Shown here piece after piece: positions 1,091 to 15,682 of a DNA stretch of 64,000 nucleotides (the stretch's first letter is position 1; the number at the start of each line of letters is the position of its first letter). A program made the position numbers and the translations under genes. This DNA comes from Myxococcales bacterium. Its GTDB lineage: Bacteria > Myxococcota_A > Polyangia > Palsa-1104 > SHYY01. Below the pieces are notes generated by a model. It did not search any database and had not been told where the DNA came from. It worked only from the letters and a program-made list of their open reading frames with translations. The stretch covers positions 19,158-83,157 of the forward strand of contig SHYY01000002.1 of the NCBI GenBank assembly GCA_009692555.1, in the 5' to 3' direction.

Positions 1091-1178
1091 AGGATGGGGC
1101 AGGATGAGGACAGGTTGGGGCAGCTTGGGGGCAGCTTGGGGCAGCTTGGAGGGCAGGCTGGGGACAGGGTTGGGGCGG
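1091..1178 (+). repeat. G-rich degenerate tandem array (CAGCTTGGGG / GGTTGGGG units), G-tracts on the plus strand
   Basis: Read directly: caggatgggg caggatgagg acaggttgggg cagcttggggg cagcttgggg cagcttggaggg caggctgggg acagggttgggg. A second short array (CCGGTTGGGG x3) lies at 1364-1400. Confidence 0.8.
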
Positions 1179-1363
1179 GTGCTTAACAGCGGAGGGGGCC
1201 CTCTTGCTCGTCACGTAGTCGTAGTCGTAGTCGTAGTCGTAGTCATGCTCACGCGCATGTGCCGGAGAGGTGATCCCCTGCGCGAGAGTGCCCCTGAATC
1301 GACTACGACTACGACTACGACTACGACTACGTGAGCGGAGGGACCCCCTTCTCCGTTAAGCAC
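1179..1363. mobile_element. 185-bp imperfect palindromic element (family D, copy D1) whose arms end in hexamer arrays (GTAGTC)5 / (GACTAC)5
   Basis: Left arm 1179-1244 (GTGCTTAAC...(GTAGTC)5). Right arm 1301-1363 ((GACTAC)5...GTTAAGCAC). Central 56-nt loop. The right arm matches 49324-49380 at 56 of 57 positions. Confidence 0.8.
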
Positions 1364-1493
1364 CCGGTTGGGGACCGGTTGGGGCCGGTTGGGGCAGATC
1401 GGTTGACGAACGGGTGTCCGGCGGCTAACATTGCGACCCTCCCTGTCTTCCCGCGGGGCCCGCGCAAGCTGCCCTACACGAAGGTGGTGTCCC

Positions 1494-8396: not shown

Positions 8397-10355
8397 ATGG
8401 CCAACCAGCAAGAGCACCCGCAAGACACCCTCTCGTCGCTGCCGACCAATCTGCCCCCGCCTTCCGGCGAGGCGCTCGCGCCGTTCGATCCGGTCGCCGC
8501 GGAGTCGGCGCTGGCGGGCGCGCTCGGCGAGGAGGGCTTCAAGCGCTACCAGGACCGCGAACAGATCGGCGAGGGCGGGATGGGCGAGGTGCGCCTGTGC
8601 CTCGACGGGCGCTTCGGACGCGAGGTGGCGATGAAGCTGGTGCGCGCCCCGGAGGTGACCGACCACGGATCGCACGCCGACCGGCAGATGCGCTTCCTCC
8701 GCGAGGCGCGCGTGCAGGGGAGGCTGGAGCATCCGTCGATCGTCCCGGTGTACGATCTCGGCCGCGATCCGGCCGGCGCGCTCTACTTCACGATGAAGCG
8801 CGTGCGCGGCCTCACCGTCGAGGAGATCCTCCTCCAGCTCGCCGCGGGCGACCCTGCTGCGTTGCAGCAATTCTCGCGACGCAAGCTCCTCTCGGCCTTC
8901 ACCAGCGTCTGCCTGGCGGTCGATTTCGCGCACGCCCGCGGTGTGCTCCACCGCGACCTGAAGCCGTCGAACATCATGCTCGGCGACTTCGGCGAGGTGT
9001 ACGTGCTCGACTGGGGGCTGGCCAAGCTGGCCGGGCGCGAGGAGCCGGCGCCGCGCGGGGAGGCCACCACCGTCGATGATCCGGAGCTCGGCGCAGGCCG
9101 CACCGCCCACGGGGCGATGATGGGGACGCCCGGCTACATGGCGCCCGAGCAGGTGCGCGGCGAGGTCGACAAGCTGGATGCCCGCACCGACGTCTATGCG
9201 CTCGGGGCGATCCTGTTCGAGCTGCTCGCCTTGCAGCCGCTCCACGGGCGCAACAGCGCCGCCGAGGTGATCGCCGGAACGCTCACCGGCGCCGATGCGC
9301 GGGCCTCGGTGCGGGCCCCGGATCGCGATGTGCCGCCGGAGCTCGAGGCGGCGTGCATCCGTGCGACCCGCCTCGATCCCGCGGCGCGCCACCCGACGGC
9401 GCGCGAGCTGTGTCAGGCGGTGGAGCGCTTCCTCGACGGGGATCGCGATCTCGGACTGCGGCGTGAGATGGCCGCGTCGCACGCGCAGCGCGCCGAGGAG
9501 GCGGCGACGGTGGCGCTCTCCGCCGAGCCCACCGCCAACGACGAGCGGAGCCGGGCGCTGCGCGAGGTGGGGCGCGCGCTGGCGCTCGACCAGGGCCACA
9601 TCGGGGCGACCCGCACGCTGGTCCGGCTGCTCACCGAGCCGCCGCGCGAGCTGCCGCCCGCCGCCCAGGCCGAATCGGATCGGGTGGCGATGCGCGAGCA
9701 GCGCGCCGCGTCGCGGATCGGCTTCTTCGTCTACCTGAGCTGGTTCCTCTACGCGCCCGCGGTCCTCTGCATGGGCGTGCGCAACTGGACGGTGGTCGGG
9801 ATCTCGGCGGCGCTGTGGGGCGGCGCGGCGCTGTGCTGCCTCGGGATGTACCTGCGGCCGCGGCCGGTCAACACCACCCCCTACCCGCTGTTGATCCTGA
9901 GCTCGCTGGCGGTCGCCTCGAGCTCGCTCCTCTTCGGCGTCTACATCCTCCTGCCGAGCCTCGCCACGGTGAACACCATGTCCTACATGCTCGGCCGCGA
10001 GCGCTCCCACCGCCTGCTGGTGCTGGTGATCGGCTGCCTGACCATCCTCGGCCCGCTCGCCCTGGAGACCTTCGGGCTGATCCCATCGGCCTACGACTTC
10101 CACGACGGCGTGATGACCGTGCTCCCCCGCGTCCTCGATCTGCCGCCGATCCCGACCCAGGCCAGCCTCCTGATCATCCACCTCGCGGTGGTGGTCACGT
10201 CGAGCCTGATCATCGCCCGGATCCGCGACGTGAGCGCGCTCGCCGAGCGACGACTGCAGATGCAGGCGTGGCAGCTCCAGCAGCTCGCTCCCGATCAGGC
10301 GAAGGGCGCCATCGAGCCGGAGATGCCGTCCGATCCGAGGTGCTTCATCTCGTAG
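8397..10355 (+). CDS. Ser/Thr protein kinase with C-terminal multi-TM region
   Basis: Start ATG 8397 within the 1254-aa track ORF. GEGGMGEVRL, VAMKLV, HRDLKPSNIML, DWGLAK, APEQ. Hydrophobic C-terminal third. Confidence 0.9.
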   Translation: MANQQEHPQDTLSSLPTNLPPPSGEALAPFDPVAAESALAGALGEEGFKRYQDREQIGEGGMGEVRLCLDGRFGREVAMKLVRAPEVTDHGSHADRQMRFLREARVQGRLEHPSIVPVYDLGRDPAGALYFTMKRVRGLTVEEILLQLAAGDPAALQQFSRRKLLSAFTSVCLAVDFAHARGVLHRDLKPSNIMLGDFGEVYVLDWGLAKLAGREEPAPRGEATTVDDPELGAGRTAHGAMMGTPGYMAPEQVRGEVDKLDARTDVYALGAILFELLALQPLHGRNSAAEVIAGTLTGADARASVRAPDRDVPPELEAACIRATRLDPAARHPTARELCQAVERFLDGDRDLGLRREMAASHAQRAEEAATVALSAEPTANDERSRALREVGRALALDQGHIGATRTLVRLLTEPPRELPPAAQAESDRVAMREQRAASRIGFFVYLSWFLYAPAVLCMGVRNWTVVGISAALWGGAALCCLGMYLRPRPVNTTPYPLLILSSLAVASSSLLFGVYILLPSLATVNTMSYMLGRERSHRLLVLVIGCLTILGPLALETFGLIPSAYDFHDGVMTVLPRVLDLPPIPTQASLLIIHLAVVVTSSLIIARIRDVSALAERRLQMQAWQLQQLAPDQAKGAIEPEMPSDPRCFIS

Positions 10356-10434
10356 CGATCCGTCCCGCTGGGCCTCAGCCCGCGCACCCAGGGGACGCGG
10401 TGGCGCCACCTGCGGCGGTTCAATTTGGCTCAGC

Positions 10435-11068
10435 TCAGCCAGCGAGCCAGTGTTCCCCGGGCATGATGCGCTTCATGAACTCGTCAAACAGCGGCACCGT
10501 GAACGCCGTGTCACCGTGGTTCGGACTCCAGATCATCCCCTTGCCGATCAGCCCGTTTCGCAGAGGAGCAAGCGCCGTCACCTTGCGGCTCAGCTGCGCG
10601 GCAATGTCCCCGGAGCGGTGCGGCCCCGGTCCGAGTTCTGCCATCGCACGCACGTAGCGCCTCTCCATGGGGTGTGATCGCAAGTAGTCGGTGACCACGG
10701 CCGCACTCGTCGGCGTCGGCGTCGGCGTTTGCGTCGGCGTCGGCGGGTCGAGAGGGCATCGCGCCAACGCCTACGCAAACGCCGACGCCGACGTCCACGT
10801 CGAGCCACCGACTATCGTGGATCACACCCCTCTCCATGGGCGTCAGCCGGTCGAAGCGAACCCGGAAGAAGCTCTCGTCCAGCGCCGCCACGGCTTGCTC
10901 CGACGCGGCCTCGACGTCCTTCTCGGTGATCGGACCTGCCTGAGCCACCTCCCAGGCCCGCTTGCCCCACTCCTGCAGGAAGTAGGGGTAGCCCCTGGTC
11001 TGATTCACGATTCGCTCCACCGCGGCAGAAACCCAGGCGACCTTGAGATCGTGTGCGGGCTTCACCAA
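10435..11068 (-). pseudogene. 5'-truncated remnant of an AAA/ATPase_2-type ATP-binding protein (C-terminal winged-helix part), split by a palindromic element insertion
   Basis: Two ORF frames join as ...GYPYFLQEWG...FRVRFDRLTPMER | RYVRAMAELGPGPHRSGDIAAQL...FTVPLFDEFMKR once 10671-10839 is removed. No N-terminal P-loop domain is present; the fragment starts right after the 3' end of the neighbouring gene. Confidence 0.75.
10671..10828. mobile_element. 158-bp imperfect palindromic element (family D-like, copy D3) with (GTCGGC)n/(GCCGAC)n arms, inserted in a coding sequence with an 11-bp target duplication
   Basis: Ends GGTGTGATC / GATCACACC. Arms carry GTCGGC hexamer runs. The direct repeat CCTCTCCATGG occurs at 10660-10670 and 10829-10839. 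Confidence 0.85.
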
Positions 11069-11134
11069 GGCGTGGCAGGCAGCTGCCTGCGGGAGCGCCC
11101 CCGCAGGTTGGTCAGGGGCATCATTTCGGGCCGA

Positions 11135-14100
11135 TCAGCCCGGCGTCGAGTCCTCGAGGATCTCGCTCGCCGGGGGCGCGGCGAGGTACCTGGAGCGCCA
11201 CTGCTCGTCGCGCAGGCGGGCCGCCTTTTTCCGCACCTCGGCGCGCGCGCGTGCCAGCGAGGCCGCGGCCTCGTCGCTGCGACCGGCGCCGGCGGCCAGC
11301 CGGGCGTGGTGGAAGAGCACCTCCTCGGCCTCGTCGACCCGTCCGGCGTCGCAAAGCGCCACCGCCTCGGCGGAGCGATCGGCGGCCTCCTCGCGGCGCC
11401 CCGAGCGCGCGAGGGCCAGCCCCTCGGCGATCAGCCCGAAGGCCACCCCGTTCGGGATCGCCGCCTCGCGGGCCAGCTTGACCGCCGAGCGCGCGAGATC
11501 GAGCGGCAGGTCCGGCGGCGCACCCGCCGCGAGCTTGCAAAACGCAAGGTAGACCAGCGCGCGGATCTCCTGGTAGCGGCTCCGGGTCGCCTGCGCCAGC
11601 TCGAGGCCGCGCTCGAGGTGCTCCGCCGCCGCCGCGATTTCGCCGCGCCGGAGATCGACCTGGCCGATCGAGATGCTGGCGTCGGTGAGGGCGCTCATGT
11701 CGCGGCTCGCCTCGTCGAGCTCGAGGGCCCGGACGAGGTGGCGGTGCGCGCGATCGTGATCGCCGAGCAGCGCATGAACCTGACCGATGTTGCCGAGGGT
11801 GGCGCCGAGCCCGACCCGGTCGCCGATCTCCTGATCGATCTTCAGCGAGTGCTTGTAGTGAGCGAGCGCCTGCTCGAGGTCGCCCTGGCTGATCGCCACG
11901 TTGCCGAGGTTGTTCAGCGTCGCGGACTCGCGGCGGCGACTGCCGAGGCGGCGGTGGATCGCGAGCGCCTCGCCGTAGGCCCGCGCGGCCTCCTGCCCGC
12001 GCCCCTGATCGCGCTCGATGGTGCCGACGGCGCTTTGCACCTGGGCGCGTTCGAGGAGTCCGGCGCGGTCCTCGGGGTCGCCGAGCGCGGCGAGGGCGTC
12101 GCGGGTGCAGAGGAGCGCCTCCGGATAGCGTCCGATGTGGATCAGCAGCGTTGCGTCGAGGCGCAGCGCCTCCGCCTCGGTGATCCGATCGCCCGCCGCG
12201 CGCGCGGTCTCCCGGGCGCGGGCGCTCTCGCGGCGTGCGGCGGCATGCTTTCCGGTGTCGAGGTAGTAGGAGCTCAAACGAGCCAGCGAGCGCGCCAGGC
12301 GCCCCGCGTCGCCGAGGTCCTCCGCCAGCCGGCGCATGACGGTCACCTCGGCCAGCTCGTCGTCGCGCTGACCGAGGGCGCGCAGGATCTGCTCGCGCTC
12401 GGCGTGAAGATCCCAGCACTCGGCCCGCAGAGCCGGTTGGTCGCCGAAGAGCGCCAGCGCCTGGCCGAAGTGGCGCCAGGCCTCGGCGTTGCCCGAGACA
12501 TCGCGGGCGTGGATCCCGGCGCGGGCGAAGGCGCGACCCGCTTCGATCGGCTCCCCCGCCGCCTGGAGGTGATGGGCGATCCGCGCGTCGTCGGCGCCGC
12601 GATGGTAGGACGGCGATCCGGCGAGGCGCTCGGCGGCGCGGCGGTGGAAGGAGGCGCGCACCTCGGCGGCCAATCCACCGTAGGCGATCTCCTGGGCGAG
12701 CGCGCTGCGGAAGGCGAACTCTCCGCGCGGCTCCGTGGACCTCGCCGCCGCCTGGGGCCCCTCCTCGACCGGCACGAGCAACCCGCGCACGGTGAGGCGC
12801 TCGATCAGCGGCGCGGCGTCGACACTGTCGAGGAGGGCGGCGAGATCGACCGCGCGGAAGATCCGGCCGAGCACCGCCGCGGCGCGCACCGCGGCGCGCT
12901 CCTCGTCGGGGAGGCGGTCGAGACGGGCGCCGATCAGCGCCTCGATCGAGAGCGGCACGGCGACCTCGGTGTCGAGGCGCTTGAGGGCGAAGCCGCCGCT
13001 CTCGCCCACCGCCAGGATCCCGCGCTCGGCCAGCGACTCGAGGATCTCGTTCAGGTAGAACGGGTTGCCGCCTGCCCGGTCGAGGGTGGTGCGGATCAGC
13101 GCCGCCACCGCCTCGTCGTCGGGGCGCTCGAAGCGCGCGCGGAGGAGCCCCTCACGCGCCCGCGGGGAGAGCTCGCCGACGAAGATCGGGCTGACGTTCG
13201 GCTCGCCGAGCAGGATCTCGATCCGCGCGTCCTCGTGCAGCGTCTCGGGCCCCGGGACGCCCGCGCGGGTGGTCCCGGCGATGACGATCTCCACGCCACC
13301 GTCGTCGGTGTCCGCCAGCTCGGGGGGACGCGCCTCGTGGCGCGCGGTGGCGAGGATCAGGACCGGCCGCGGCAGCGGGTCGCGCGCCAGAGCGAGGAGG
13401 AGCTCGAAGGACTGGGTGTCGGCGAAGTGGAGATCCTCGACGATGAGCACCAGGGTGCGCTCGCGCGCCAGGCGGTCCCCGATGGCGCGGATGCCCTGGT
13501 AGAGACGGTGGCGGCGCTCCGCCGGGTCGATCTCGTCAGCGCCGGGCACGTGGAGACCGAGCAGGAGCGCGAGCGCCTCGGTGATCGGCTTCACCCGCTT
13601 CCCACCGTCGCCGCTGAACAGCTCGGCGACCCCTGCCTGGATCATCCGCTTCAGGTCGCGCGGCTCCGCAACGTCTCCCACGCCGAGGAGGTCGCGGGCG
13701 AGGTCGGCGGTGAGCGCGTAGGGGGTGTCGCGGCGGCCCAGGCTGCCGACGGTGCGGAGCACGAGGTGGGTGGCGGGATCGAGCCGCGCCCACAGCCGGG
13801 CGACGAGCGAGCGCTTGCCGACACCGCGATCGCCGACGGCAAGGAGAAATCGCCCCTGGCCGCGGGTCGCCACGTCGCGCGCGGCGTCCTCCAGCGCCTG
13901 CAGCTCCAGCTCGCGTCCCCACAGCGCGCTCCCCGGCGCCGTCATCCGCTCCGCCCGCGGCGTCGCGCCGAGCGTTCGGAACACGCGCACACGCGACGGC
14001 TCGCCCGGCTCCACGGCTTCGGCCGGGGAGGCGCCTTGCGCCGCGAGGCCGATCGCCTCCAGCTCCTCGAACCGCCACTCGCCGCGCGCCGCCCGGAAGA

Positions 14101-15682
14101 CCTCGCCACCGACGAGCACCTCCCCCGGCATCGCCTCCTCGGCGAGGCGGCGCGCTATGCTCCCGACCGGGGCGCACAGCTCGTGCTCGAAGCGCGCGTC
14201 GCCGGTGACCGTGCTCCGCCCGACCAGCGCCGCCCCGGCCTCGACCCCGATCGAGAGGTGCAGCGGCGGGCGGAGATCGCGCACGATCCCGTCGAGTGCG
14301 TCGATCAGCGCCAGCGCGAGCTGGATCGCCCGCGACGGGTCGTCCTCGGCGCCCACCGGCAAGCCGATCAGGTAGGTGAAGCCGCGCTCGTCGAGGCGAT
14401 CGGCATGGGCGTGATGCTTGTATGCGACGTGCTCCGCCACGCGCAGGAAGTCGAGCAGCACGCCGCGCGCGCGCGTTTCGCCGAGCTGCCGACGCAGCGC
14501 CGCGAGCCCGCCGAGCGCCCCCTCGACCACCACCACGTTCTTCCGCTCGCGCGGTCCGGCCACGAGCGGCAGGTGGCCCGCGTCGCCCGAGGTCACCGAC
14601 GCGGTCGGCGTCACCGACGGTCCGGTGGCGAGCTCGTCGTCGTTCGGCTGGGTAGGCGAGGTCTCCTCGGTCGAGGAGGCCACCGCGCGCCGCGCCGCAG
14701 CACGCGCCTCGACTCCGCCGGCCTCCTGCGGCTCTTCCAGCGCGCGGATCCGGTTGCGCTCGGCCTGCGGCACCACCTGCGCGACGAACGCCGCCATCGC
14801 CCCCGACTCGTAGATCTCCCCCTCCTGCGACCCGAGGCTGAAGAAGAACTTGCCGAGCGCCTGCTGGAGATCGCGCGCGGTCTGGAAGCGATCCTCGGCC
14901 CGCCGCGCGAGGGACTTGAGGATGATCCGCTCGAGCTCCTCGGGCAGATCGGGATCGGCGTCGCGCGGGCGCGGCACGAGCGCGCTGCGGATCGCCTCCA
15001 GCGCCTGCCGCTCGCCCATTCGCCCGAACAGCGCGCGCCCGGTGGTGAGCTCGTAGAGGACGATCCCCGCGGCGAAGATGTCCGAGCGCCGGTCGATGGG
15101 GAGGCCCGACGCCTGCTCGGGCGACATGTAGGCGAACTTTCCCTTCACCACCCCTTCGTCGGGCTTCTGCCCGCGCGCCCGCGCGATCCCGAAGTCGACG
15201 ATCTTCACCGCTCCGTCGAAGCTGACCAGGATGTTCTGCGGCGAGACGTCGCGGTGAACGATGTGCAGCGCCTCGCCCGCGTCGTCGGCCTTGCGATGGG
15301 CGTAATCGAGCCCCTTCGCCACCTGCTGCATCACGTAGGCGGCGAGCCCCGGGGGCACCTTGCGGCCGGCGGCGGCGGCGGCGTGGATCAGGCGGAGGAG
15401 ATCGACCCCCTCGACGCGCTCCATCGCCAGGAAGTAGGTGTGCCCGAGCTGCCCGTAGTTGAAGGTCTGGACGATGTTCGGGTGATTCAGGATCACCCCG
15501 ATCTTCGCCTCGTCCTCGAACATCGCGCGGAACTGCGGCGCCTGGGCCAGCCCGGGGTGGATCTTCTTGATCACCAGCACCTTCGAGAGCCCCCCGATGA
15601 GCGGCTCGCGCGCGAGGAACACCTCGGCCATGCCGCCGGCGCCGAGCCGTCGCAAGATCTGGTATTTGCCGAACGGCTCCAC
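11135..15682 (-). CDS. 1515-aa multidomain Ser/Thr kinase: kinase, cyclase-homology-like region, P-loop NTPase (STAND-like), TPR array
   Basis: GAGGMAEVFLA, LVIKKI, HRDVSPQNILV, DFGIAR, SPEQ. Central Walker A GDRGVGKRS. C-terminal repeated A/L-rich TPR-like helices. The 1674-aa plus-strand ORF is its shadow. Confidence 0.93.
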   Translation of the reverse strand: MEPFGKYQILRRLGAGGMAEVFLAREPLIGGLSKVLVIKKIHPGLAQAPQFRAMFEDEAKIGVILNHPNIVQTFNYGQLGHTYFLAMERVEGVDLLRLIHAAAAAGRKVPPGLAAYVMQQVAKGLDYAHRKADDAGEALHIVHRDVSPQNILVSFDGAVKIVDFGIARARGQKPDEGVVKGKFAYMSPEQASGLPIDRRSDIFAAGIVLYELTTGRALFGRMGERQALEAIRSALVPRPRDADPDLPEELERIILKSLARRAEDRFQTARDLQQALGKFFFSLGSQEGEIYESGAMAAFVAQVVPQAERNRIRALEEPQEAGGVEARAAARRAVASSTEETSPTQPNDDELATGPSVTPTASVTSGDAGHLPLVAGPRERKNVVVVEGALGGLAALRRQLGETRARGVLLDFLRVAEHVAYKHHAHADRLDERGFTYLIGLPVGAEDDPSRAIQLALALIDALDGIVRDLRPPLHLSIGVEAGAALVGRSTVTGDARFEHELCAPVGSIARRLAEEAMPGEVLVGGEVFRAARGEWRFEELEAIGLAAQGASPAEAVEPGEPSRVRVFRTLGATPRAERMTAPGSALWGRELELQALEDAARDVATRGQGRFLLAVGDRGVGKRSLVARLWARLDPATHLVLRTVGSLGRRDTPYALTADLARDLLGVGDVAEPRDLKRMIQAGVAELFSGDGGKRVKPITEALALLLGLHVPGADEIDPAERRHRLYQGIRAIGDRLARERTLVLIVEDLHFADTQSFELLLALARDPLPRPVLILATARHEARPPELADTDDGGVEIVIAGTTRAGVPGPETLHEDARIEILLGEPNVSPIFVGELSPRAREGLLRARFERPDDEAVAALIRTTLDRAGGNPFYLNEILESLAERGILAVGESGGFALKRLDTEVAVPLSIEALIGARLDRLPDEERAAVRAAAVLGRIFRAVDLAALLDSVDAAPLIERLTVRGLLVPVEEGPQAAARSTEPRGEFAFRSALAQEIAYGGLAAEVRASFHRRAAERLAGSPSYHRGADDARIAHHLQAAGEPIEAGRAFARAGIHARDVSGNAEAWRHFGQALALFGDQPALRAECWDLHAEREQILRALGQRDDELAEVTVMRRLAEDLGDAGRLARSLARLSSYYLDTGKHAAARRESARARETARAAGDRITEAEALRLDATLLIHIGRYPEALLCTRDALAALGDPEDRAGLLERAQVQSAVGTIERDQGRGQEAARAYGEALAIHRRLGSRRRESATLNNLGNVAISQGDLEQALAHYKHSLKIDQEIGDRVGLGATLGNIGQVHALLGDHDRAHRHLVRALELDEASRDMSALTDASISIGQVDLRRGEIAAAAEHLERGLELAQATRSRYQEIRALVYLAFCKLAAGAPPDLPLDLARSAVKLAREAAIPNGVAFGLIAEGLALARSGRREEAADRSAEAVALCDAGRVDEAEEVLFHHARLAAGAGRSDEAAASLARARAEVRKKAARLRDEQWRSRYLAAPPASEILEDSTPG

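Follow-up and report, generated by a model that had tools for sequence, protein, structure and literature searches.

Here, we describe a 160-nucleotide (nt) element at positions 10670 to 10829 of a 64,000-nt stretch of the Myxococcales bacterium assembly GCA_009692555.1 (contig SHYY01000002.1, positions 19,158 to 83,157 of the forward strand; hereafter, the window, which means the whole stretch). It is very probably a miniature inverted-repeat transposable element (MITE) that arose by deletion from an insertion sequence (IS) of the ISKra4 group, belongs to a promoter-targeting family, and was recently inserted, off target, into a dead gene. The element (GGGTGTGATC...GATCACACCC) has no open reading frame (ORF) and belongs to a family specific to this genome, of which at least 14 copies are intact. 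It lies between two exact copies of CTCTCCATG, at 10661 to 10669 on the left and 10830 to 10838 on the right, a target site duplication whose 9-bp length is set by family statistics and by autonomous relatives. Three independent features, namely, the sequence of the ends, the length of the duplication, and an oriented promoter register, tie the MITE family to an ISKra4-type clade.

A sequence-only reading of the window had described a 158-bp imperfect palindrome with CCTCTCCATGG on both sides (10660 to 10670 and 10829 to 10839). The palindrome and the flanking repeat were both recovered, the exact direct repeat being 12 nt long (CCTCTCCATGGG at 10660 to 10671 and 10829 to 10840), and comparison across the family corrected the length of the element to 160 nt. 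Its outer terminal repeats (GGGGTGTGATCGCAAGTAGTCGGTG and CACCGACTATCGTGGATCACACCCC; 25 nt) are 80% complementary. The left terminal inverted repeat (10670 to 10694, plus strand; GGGTGTGATCGCAAGTAGTCGGTGA) is termed G-type, resembles the right inverted repeat (IRR) of autonomous relatives, and is the promoter-facing end in other copies; the right one (10805 to 10829, minus strand; GGGTGTGATCCACGATAGTCGGTGG when read inward) is termed C-type and resembles their left inverted repeat (IRL). Two inner hexamer arms of 38 nt, 89% complementary, form a left hairpin arm of (GTCGGC)n units (10708 to 10745) and a right hairpin arm of (GCCGAC)n-type units (10762 to 10799), separated by a central loop (10746 to 10761). 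The ORFs that run across the element are only interrupted host-gene frames or spurious frames, and the 160 nt contain no transposase ORF, in agreement with the earlier description of a non-autonomous, MITE-like element. In sequencing run X1, a Logan unitig covers exactly 10670 to 10829 (depth, 17.4; flanking contigs, 7.3 and 8.5); since it ends at these two bases, an independent assembly graph sets the repeat boundaries there.

The genome assembly (6.1 Mb, 283 contigs, 70% GC, 80% complete; its contigs are cited here by C numbers, the window being C229:19158-83157) contains 13 exact GGTGTGATC...GATCACACC pairs at spacings of 52 to 201 nt. A profile of the 30-nt ends (nhmmer) found 34 ends at E values of ≤0.05, corresponding to 14 intact elements and approximately 10 solo or truncated ends, of which the solo end on C280 is a truncated half copy. 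The 14 intact elements are dispersed over the genome, each with its own flanking duplication. One of them, at C280:19589-19748, is identical to the window copy at 159 of 160 positions (99.4%) and has a different flanking duplication. That the element transposes, or did so, as had been proposed, is borne out by the locus-specific duplications, by this twin at a different site, and by host-gene homologues that lack the insert. A duplication without mismatch, together with the near-identical copy elsewhere, dates the insertion in the window as a recent event. This genome contains the terminal-repeat pattern 14 times; the pattern is found in none of 400 other genomes of the class and at a single place (in G002) among 40 relatives; outside this genome, a scan of all GTDB species genomes returned no occurrence. 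This near-absence from other genomes points to a lineage-specific expansion.

The gene interrupted in the window is a remnant, as had been read from the sequence. Two ORFs on the minus strand, which differ in frame, border the element, and deleting 10671 to 10839 in silico does fuse them into ...FDRLTPMERRYVRAMAELGPGPHRSGD..., the fused frame reading ...ESFFRVRFDRLTPMERRYVRAMAELGPGPHRSGDIAAQL...HWLAG*. The rejoined frame (175 residues) has 3985 homologues (E values down to 3e-84, identity up to 81%); PF13191 (AAA_16) is present in several of these, and one bears the name "ATP-binding protein." Alignment with seven homologues, which read FDRLTPMEKRYLRAMAELG at this place, is gap-free over the junction. 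The host-gene homologues lack the insert, an empty site is thus seen at the protein level, and the inserted sequence is, judging from these alignments, not ancestral coding sequence.

The N-terminal ~230 residues of the protein family, including the AAA_16 ATPase domain, are gone from the remnant, which is present once in the genome. Its 5' part (10830 to 11134, minus strand; homology from DAPDQPAGALPQ...FDRLTPMER) opens directly after the stop codon of a serine/threonine kinase gene (11135 to 15682), the homology beginning at DAPDQPAGALPQ a few codons past that stop; its 3' part (10435 to 10669, minus strand; AAA_16-family "ATP-binding protein," ...RYVRAMAELGPGPHRSGD...HWLAG*) holds the stop codon of the remnant. 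The truncation, which removed the 5' 60% of the gene, would have come before the insertion. The remnant (10830 to 11137) is in the same frame as the upstream kinase gene (11135 to 15682, minus strand) with one stop codon between them, and the deletion of the ATPase domain ended at the 3' end of the kinase gene.

An autonomous parent, for which the sequence-only reading had suggested a search, was not found in the genome of the window, which contains no IS-sized pair of the same ends; elsewhere, ISKra4-family ISs with the same ends were found. Public metagenome contigs scanned with the terminal-repeat pattern gave 13 matches, most of them from one conserved coding locus. On one contig (L026; 48% GC), the inward-reading repeat GGGGTGTGATCGGAAGTAGTCGGTGAGC stands 30 nt past the stop codon of a transposase gene and agrees with the left end of the window copy at 25 of 27 nt and with the C280 copy at 26 of 27 nt. 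The C-terminal 167 residues of this transposase (a fragment) match the NCBIfam model "ISKra4 family transposase" (NF033572; E value, 7e-26). The same IS occurs in a Gloeobacterales metagenome-assembled genome (MAG; L039), with the matching left end (IRL) GGGTGTGATCGGAAGTATGCGGTGAGC directly before the transposase start.

A complete IS of 1774 bp with GGGTGTGAT termini was found in an uncultured Polyangiales MAG (L040; CAYNOM010001225.1, 2043 bp). It is bounded by GGGTGTGATTCAGGATGAGGGGG and GGGTGTGATCGAAGATCTGGGG, the duplication that flanks it, GGACCCTGG, is perfect (9/9) with the outer positions unmatched, and its transposase (522 residues) has ISKra4 as its best family (E value, 1.5e-48). 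The clade of this transposase comprises approximately 100 relatives of ~515 residues (P0121 to P0227), mostly on contigs of 1.7 to 2.5 kb; among the sampled copies, the clade member L047 likewise has a 9/9 duplication (CCCAACCTC). Each MITE pairs one G-type end (GGGTGTGATCG...) with one C-type end (GGGTGTGATCCA...), and these correspond to the IRR and IRL, respectively, of the L040 clade, as expected of an internal-deletion derivative. The ends shared with autonomous ISs, which are those of other organisms, therefore amount to 25 to 26 of 27 nt for L026/L039 and to the GGGTGTGAT termini for the L040 clade.

Three lake metagenome contigs (~60% GC) each carry a solo 25-nt exact match to the left repeat of the window copy (GGGTGTGATCGCAAGTAGTCGGTGA) with no partner end (L023:1507, L029:3692, and L031:117). 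This solo end lies beside ribbon-helix-helix/PIN-like toxin-antitoxin genes and is probably a decayed relative in another organism. A parent IS was also looked for at contig ends beside solo ends, and these candidates were rejected: C191 and C216 run into an unrelated four-helix-bundle cassette repeat. At C45:21320-21600 and C125:16779-16951, elements stand in tandem with one shared copy of the 9-bp duplication between them (for example, GCGACCGGG, MITE, GCGACCGAG, MITE, GCGACTGAG), and the same arrangement is present next to an autonomous IS at L041:117-160. Such tandems imply that the same 9-mer, next to an end already in place, was hit more than once.

Several results weigh against this origin and against parts of its evidence. 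At 166 bits, the L040 transposase falls short of the NCBIfam cut-off of 205, and the closest terminal-repeat match is an IS in cyanobacteria-like DNA (48 to 53% GC), not in myxobacterial DNA. No L040-like transposase or IS was found in 40 relatives, and no L040-like DNA (≥80% nucleotide identity) was found in three freshwater metagenomes that hold the locus. The orthologous locus is absent from the three closest genomes, and hence there is no empty site at the DNA level; nor was the empty-site joint seen in metagenome contigs (assembled contigs only). The positions just outside the 9-bp duplication match in 53 to 67% of copies, above composition, which may mean that C-N9-G targets are weakly preferred or that duplications are occasionally longer. 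Finally, no transposase with MITE ends was found in the genome itself, where the ISKra4-family transposases present are 25 to 29% identical to the L040 and L026 enzymes and the ends of their ISs (GGGTGCAGATCC.../GGGTGCGGCTCC...) diverge from those of the MITE after 5 to 6 bases.

These last results also bear on what moved the family. ISKra4-family transposases resident in the genome, of the C276 type or of the contig-end type of C26, C169, and C123, might be the driver in place of an absent L040/L026-like element. There are five family matches in the genome, four of them at contig ends (C187, C123, C26, and C169) and one, at C276:18874-20217, intact (330 bits); several lie at contig ends, so that they are multi-copy, and the resident ends, like those of the MITE, start with GGGTGC. 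We regard a resident driver of this kind as unlikely, because the terminal repeats differ past those first 5 to 6 bases, the 25 to 29% identity is to transposases whose ISs do have matching ends, and the C276 copy lacks a promoter in register on its IRR side (by eye). The ISKra4-type driver favored here may lie in the unassembled 20% of the genome or may have been lost, or else it may be a resident distant relative. The intact IS at C276:18640-20460 (L033) has a 547-amino-acid open frame (330 bits) and ends GGGTGCAGATCC... and GGGTGCGGCTCC...; the imperfect ~150-bp direct repeat on either side of it looks like a repeated Cys-rich coding module of the host gene, not a target duplication.

Promoter targeting was seen at the G-type ends. 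Reading outward from 18 independent G-type ends, the motif TAnnnT begins at offset 40 in 7, at offset 39 in 1, and at offset 41 in 2 (genome background, 0.0007 per position; P for ≥7/18, 4e-18). At offset 17 stand TTGACA-like hexamers, such as TTGACA (twice), TTGTCG, and TTGATC. The geometry is that of a −35 box at 17 to 22, a 17-nt spacer, and a −10 box at 40 to 45, so that 16 bp separate the G-type end from the −35 box downstream of it and transcription is directed away from the element. A plausible outward gene (by composition) follows 12 of the 18 ends, at ~40 to 110 nt in ten cases and ~275 nt in two, and the 19 C-type ends show no comparable promoter signal. Autonomous ISs have similar hexamers on their IRR side, both at 17 to 22 (L040, TTGTGA; L047, TTGCAG; L041, TTGACG; L048, TTGCGA; L026, TTGTGA) and at 40 to 45 (L040, TAAACA; L047, TATGCA; L041, TATATC; L048, TAACCT). 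Among described elements, those of p-MULT 3 have a promoter-prediction peak 16 bp from IR-right, and several ISKra4-group members share that specificity (PMC3942029).

The window copy departs from this pattern. From its G-type end, the left one (10670), the expected box positions read GTGCGT and ACCGGG, there is no promoter, and no outward gene start follows; with neither boxes in register nor an outward gene, it is classed as an off-target insertion. It is also the only intact copy for which a real protein frame demonstrably crosses the junction. Other intragenic copies were sought through stop-free rejoined frames and discarded, as the long frames are compositional artefacts of 70% GC DNA. 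Plausibly, insertions into live genes are purged by selection and the window copy has been tolerated because the ATPase domain had already been lost. It is also conceivable that the insertion was on target, a cryptic or non-consensus promoter within the gene remnant having drawn the transposase. Eight of the 18 G-type ends have no recognizable in-register TAnnnT, so that consensus boxes may be dispensable, and the G-type end is oriented along the direction of transcription of the gene; given GTGCGT and ACCGGG at the expected positions, the lack of an outward gene start, and a site within conserved coding sequence, we hold this to be quite improbable and retain an off-target insertion.

The duplication had been given as 11 bp in the sequence-only reading; it measures 9 bp, the extra C and G being conserved terminal bases of the element. 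When the left and right flank positions of 15 copies were paired in the 11-bp register, the inner nine pairs agreed in 12 to 14 of the 15, and the two outer pairs in only 8 and 10. The base outside the GGTGTGATC core is G on the left (−1) and C on the right (+1), each in 14 of 15 copies; being near-invariant, these are the element's own terminal bases (GGGTGTGATC...GATCACACCC), and 14 of 15 copies begin GGGTGTG... and end ...CACACCC. The 12-nt identity in the window is accounted for by the 9-bp duplication CTCTCCATG, one terminal C, two terminal Gs, and matching target neighbors. The duplication differs from locus to locus and is 9 bp in at least 13 copies (inner positions, 80 to 93% matching).

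An 11-bp duplication around a 158-nt GGTGTGATC...GATCACACC core, moved by an IS4/IS231-like transposase (10- to 12-bp duplications, as for MIC231), would fit the 12 nt exactly repeated in the window copy and the outer-pair matches of 8/15 and 10/15, where chance gives ~30%. This is highly improbable: G (−1) and C (+1) are fixed in 14 of 15 copies, yet their partners match far less than the inner nine; the autonomous relatives L040 and L047, with the same termini, have clean 9-bp duplications with unmatched outer positions; the ends fit ISKra4-family ISs rather than IS4; and the assembly graph breaks at 10670 and 10829. IS4/IS231 (MIC-like) parentage, which the 11-bp figure had prompted, was abandoned once the duplication proved to be 9 bp. 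The IS4 transposase on L026 is part of a separate adjacent element.

The window copy folds, as had been suggested for checking, into a single long hairpin (single-stranded DNA, −69.6 kcal/mol versus −39.6 ± 3.0 kcal/mol for dinucleotide shuffles; z = −10). The sequence-only reading had spoken of one palindromic family, which holds for the hexamer hairpin of some subfamilies and fails for the grouping, as another hairpin in the window (1177 to 1365) belongs to a different family. Whole-length hairpins are found in the window/C280 type, the C233/C118 type, C250, and C125, in which 65 to 76% of the half-length is paired across the center (z = −6 to −10, except for C125, z = −3.5). The largest subfamily (C36, C49, C95, C139, C113, C231, C230, and C45b) has no hairpin. 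It has a one-sided (GGCAAC/GGCGAC)n array with a repeat number that varies by copy, as does the C273 copy, and this variable array length gives element lengths of 148 to 203 nt. The hexamer units differ among subfamilies (GTCGGC, GAGCCC, GTGAAC/GTGGCC, CGTGCG, and GTTTCC), and given this lack of conservation, the hexamers probably do not serve as binding sites for the transposase. The simplest explanation of their origin would be slippage in GC-rich DNA, with symmetry kept where a hairpin exists. A sub-threshold match to mir-242_2 at 10718 to 10789 (30.7 bits versus a gathering score of 56), the sole match in an Rfam scan of 9500 to 12000, was rejected as a microRNA precursor and attributed to the hairpin shape.

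The element resembles REP/BIME sequences as a short GC-rich hairpin of a kind scattered between genes; those have no such terminal inverted repeats and no target duplication and are RAYT-linked, whereas a 9-bp duplication is found here. A REP/BIME-like or IS200/IS605-derived palindrome (moved as single-stranded DNA by RAYT/TnpA) or an insertion without transposition, suggested by the strong single hairpin, the GTAG/CTAC motifs, and the small size, can be all but dismissed, since such elements lack target duplications and terminal inverted repeats of this kind, at least 13 copies have a locus-specific 9-bp duplication, the main subfamily has no hairpin, and the differing flanking repeats exclude a conserved target motif.

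For the ISKra4-derived MITE, the following course of events is proposed. A transposase supplied in trans would bind the two terminal repeats (~25 nt each, with G and C as their end bases) and would integrate the element over a 9-bp staggered cut, repair of which would leave the CTCTCCATG duplication. The cognate transposase would normally steer insertion to sigma-70-type promoters, placing the IRR-like G-type end 16 bp upstream of the −35 box. In the window, it may have missed this target and landed in the 3' remnant of the ATP-binding-protein gene, which had probably already lost its 5' 60%; in a dead gene, the insertion would have been cost-free and hence retained.

Classical bacterial MITEs (Correia elements, RUP, MIC231, and Nezha) are likewise short, non-coding, multi-copy, and trans-mobilized, and they too carry terminal repeats and duplicate their target; their parent families differ, as do their duplications (TA for Correia elements, 10 to 12 bp for MIC231). 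We know of no classical bacterial MITE that targets promoters with single-base register. With the L040-clade IS, the MITE has in common the GGGTGTGAT[T/C] termini, the distinction between a C-type end (IRL) and a G-type end (IRR), the 9-bp length of the duplication, and the location of a promoter 16 bp from the IRR, and the two come from the same order-level bacterial group. The IS differs in being 1774 bp long and autonomous, in its absence from the genome of the window, and in repeat positions 12 to 25 (..GATGAGGGGG versus ..GTRSTCGGTGG in the MITE).

The ISKra4 group corresponds to p-MULT 4 of the prokaryotic Mutator-like DDE transposases described by Guerillot et al. 2014 (PMC3942029), whose families have a conserved C at the end of their inverted repeats (18 to 39 bp) and make direct repeats of 8 or 9 bp; MITE derivatives are nowhere mentioned in that paper (PMC3942029). 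The MITE family agrees with the ISKra4 group in its ~25-nt terminal repeats ending in C (G at the 5' end), in its 9-bp duplication, and in its insertion at a fixed distance upstream of sigma-A promoters, from which the window copy is exempt; it differs in being only 160 nt long, in having no transposase gene, and in its hexamer-repeat hairpin interior. Promoter-targeting elements of a different clade also place an oriented right inverted repeat ~16 bp upstream of the −35 box and make 8- to 9-bp duplications; they occur in Firmicutes, either as large conjugative elements or as complete insertion sequences.

The second hexamer-armed hairpin of the window (1177 to 1365) has ends GGGTGCTTAACAGCGGAGGG/...CCGTTAAGCACCC, flanks GGTTGGGGC and GGTTGGGGA, and arms of (GTAGTC)5 and (GACTAC)5 that are 100% complementary. 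It is a gene-less copy of a four-helix-bundle cassette family that is very abundant and is found at many contig ends; 240 ends in the genome match GGGTGCTTGACAGCGGAGG with ≤3 mismatches (for example, at C16:6522-6728 and C45:22335-22934), and three of four assembled pairs have 9-bp duplications. Among these 240 ends, TTGnnn stands at outward offset 17 in 47 and at any other offset in ≤8, and TAnnnT stands at 40 to 41 in 37. The cassette family appears to be delivered to promoters by a transposase of the same class (Mutator-like, of the TnGBS/ISLre2/ISKra4 type).

A literature search retrieved nothing on MITEs of myxobacteria, nothing on MITEs that make 11-bp duplications, no title or abstract with either term of an ISKra4-MITE link, and nothing relevant on the IS256 family; the search was limited, and absence from it is not proof. 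MITEs as a kind and promoter targeting by autonomous relatives of the TnGBS/ISLre2/ISKra4 kind are known already. New are a MITE family from the ISKra4 transposase family that is confined to one uncultured lineage and the retention of single-base promoter register by its non-autonomous copies.

A more speculative and, in our view, doubtful extension is that at least two transposase-less families have colonized the genome, namely, the MITE family and the cassette family with its several hundred ends, that both are delivered by Mutator-like enzymes to 16 bp upstream of promoters, and that their hexamer-repeat hairpins act there as insulators, terminators, or modulators of the upstream promoter region. 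If so, the elements would rewire or shield many promoters at once, and the identity of 25 to 26 of 27 nt between the MITE end and a cyanobacterial IS would suggest that the driver had passed recently between freshwater cyanobacteria and the myxobacterium. The copy in the window provides direct evidence, from sequence, that an uncultured freshwater lineage of myxobacteria has undergone recent transposition, and it illustrates failed targeting, as an insertion into coding sequence that has survived apparently because the gene was already dead. The insertions of the family put hairpin DNA where upstream promoter elements act, and, in an organism refractory to culture, they flag genuine sigma-70-type promoters (TTGnnn, 17-nt spacer, TAnnnT).

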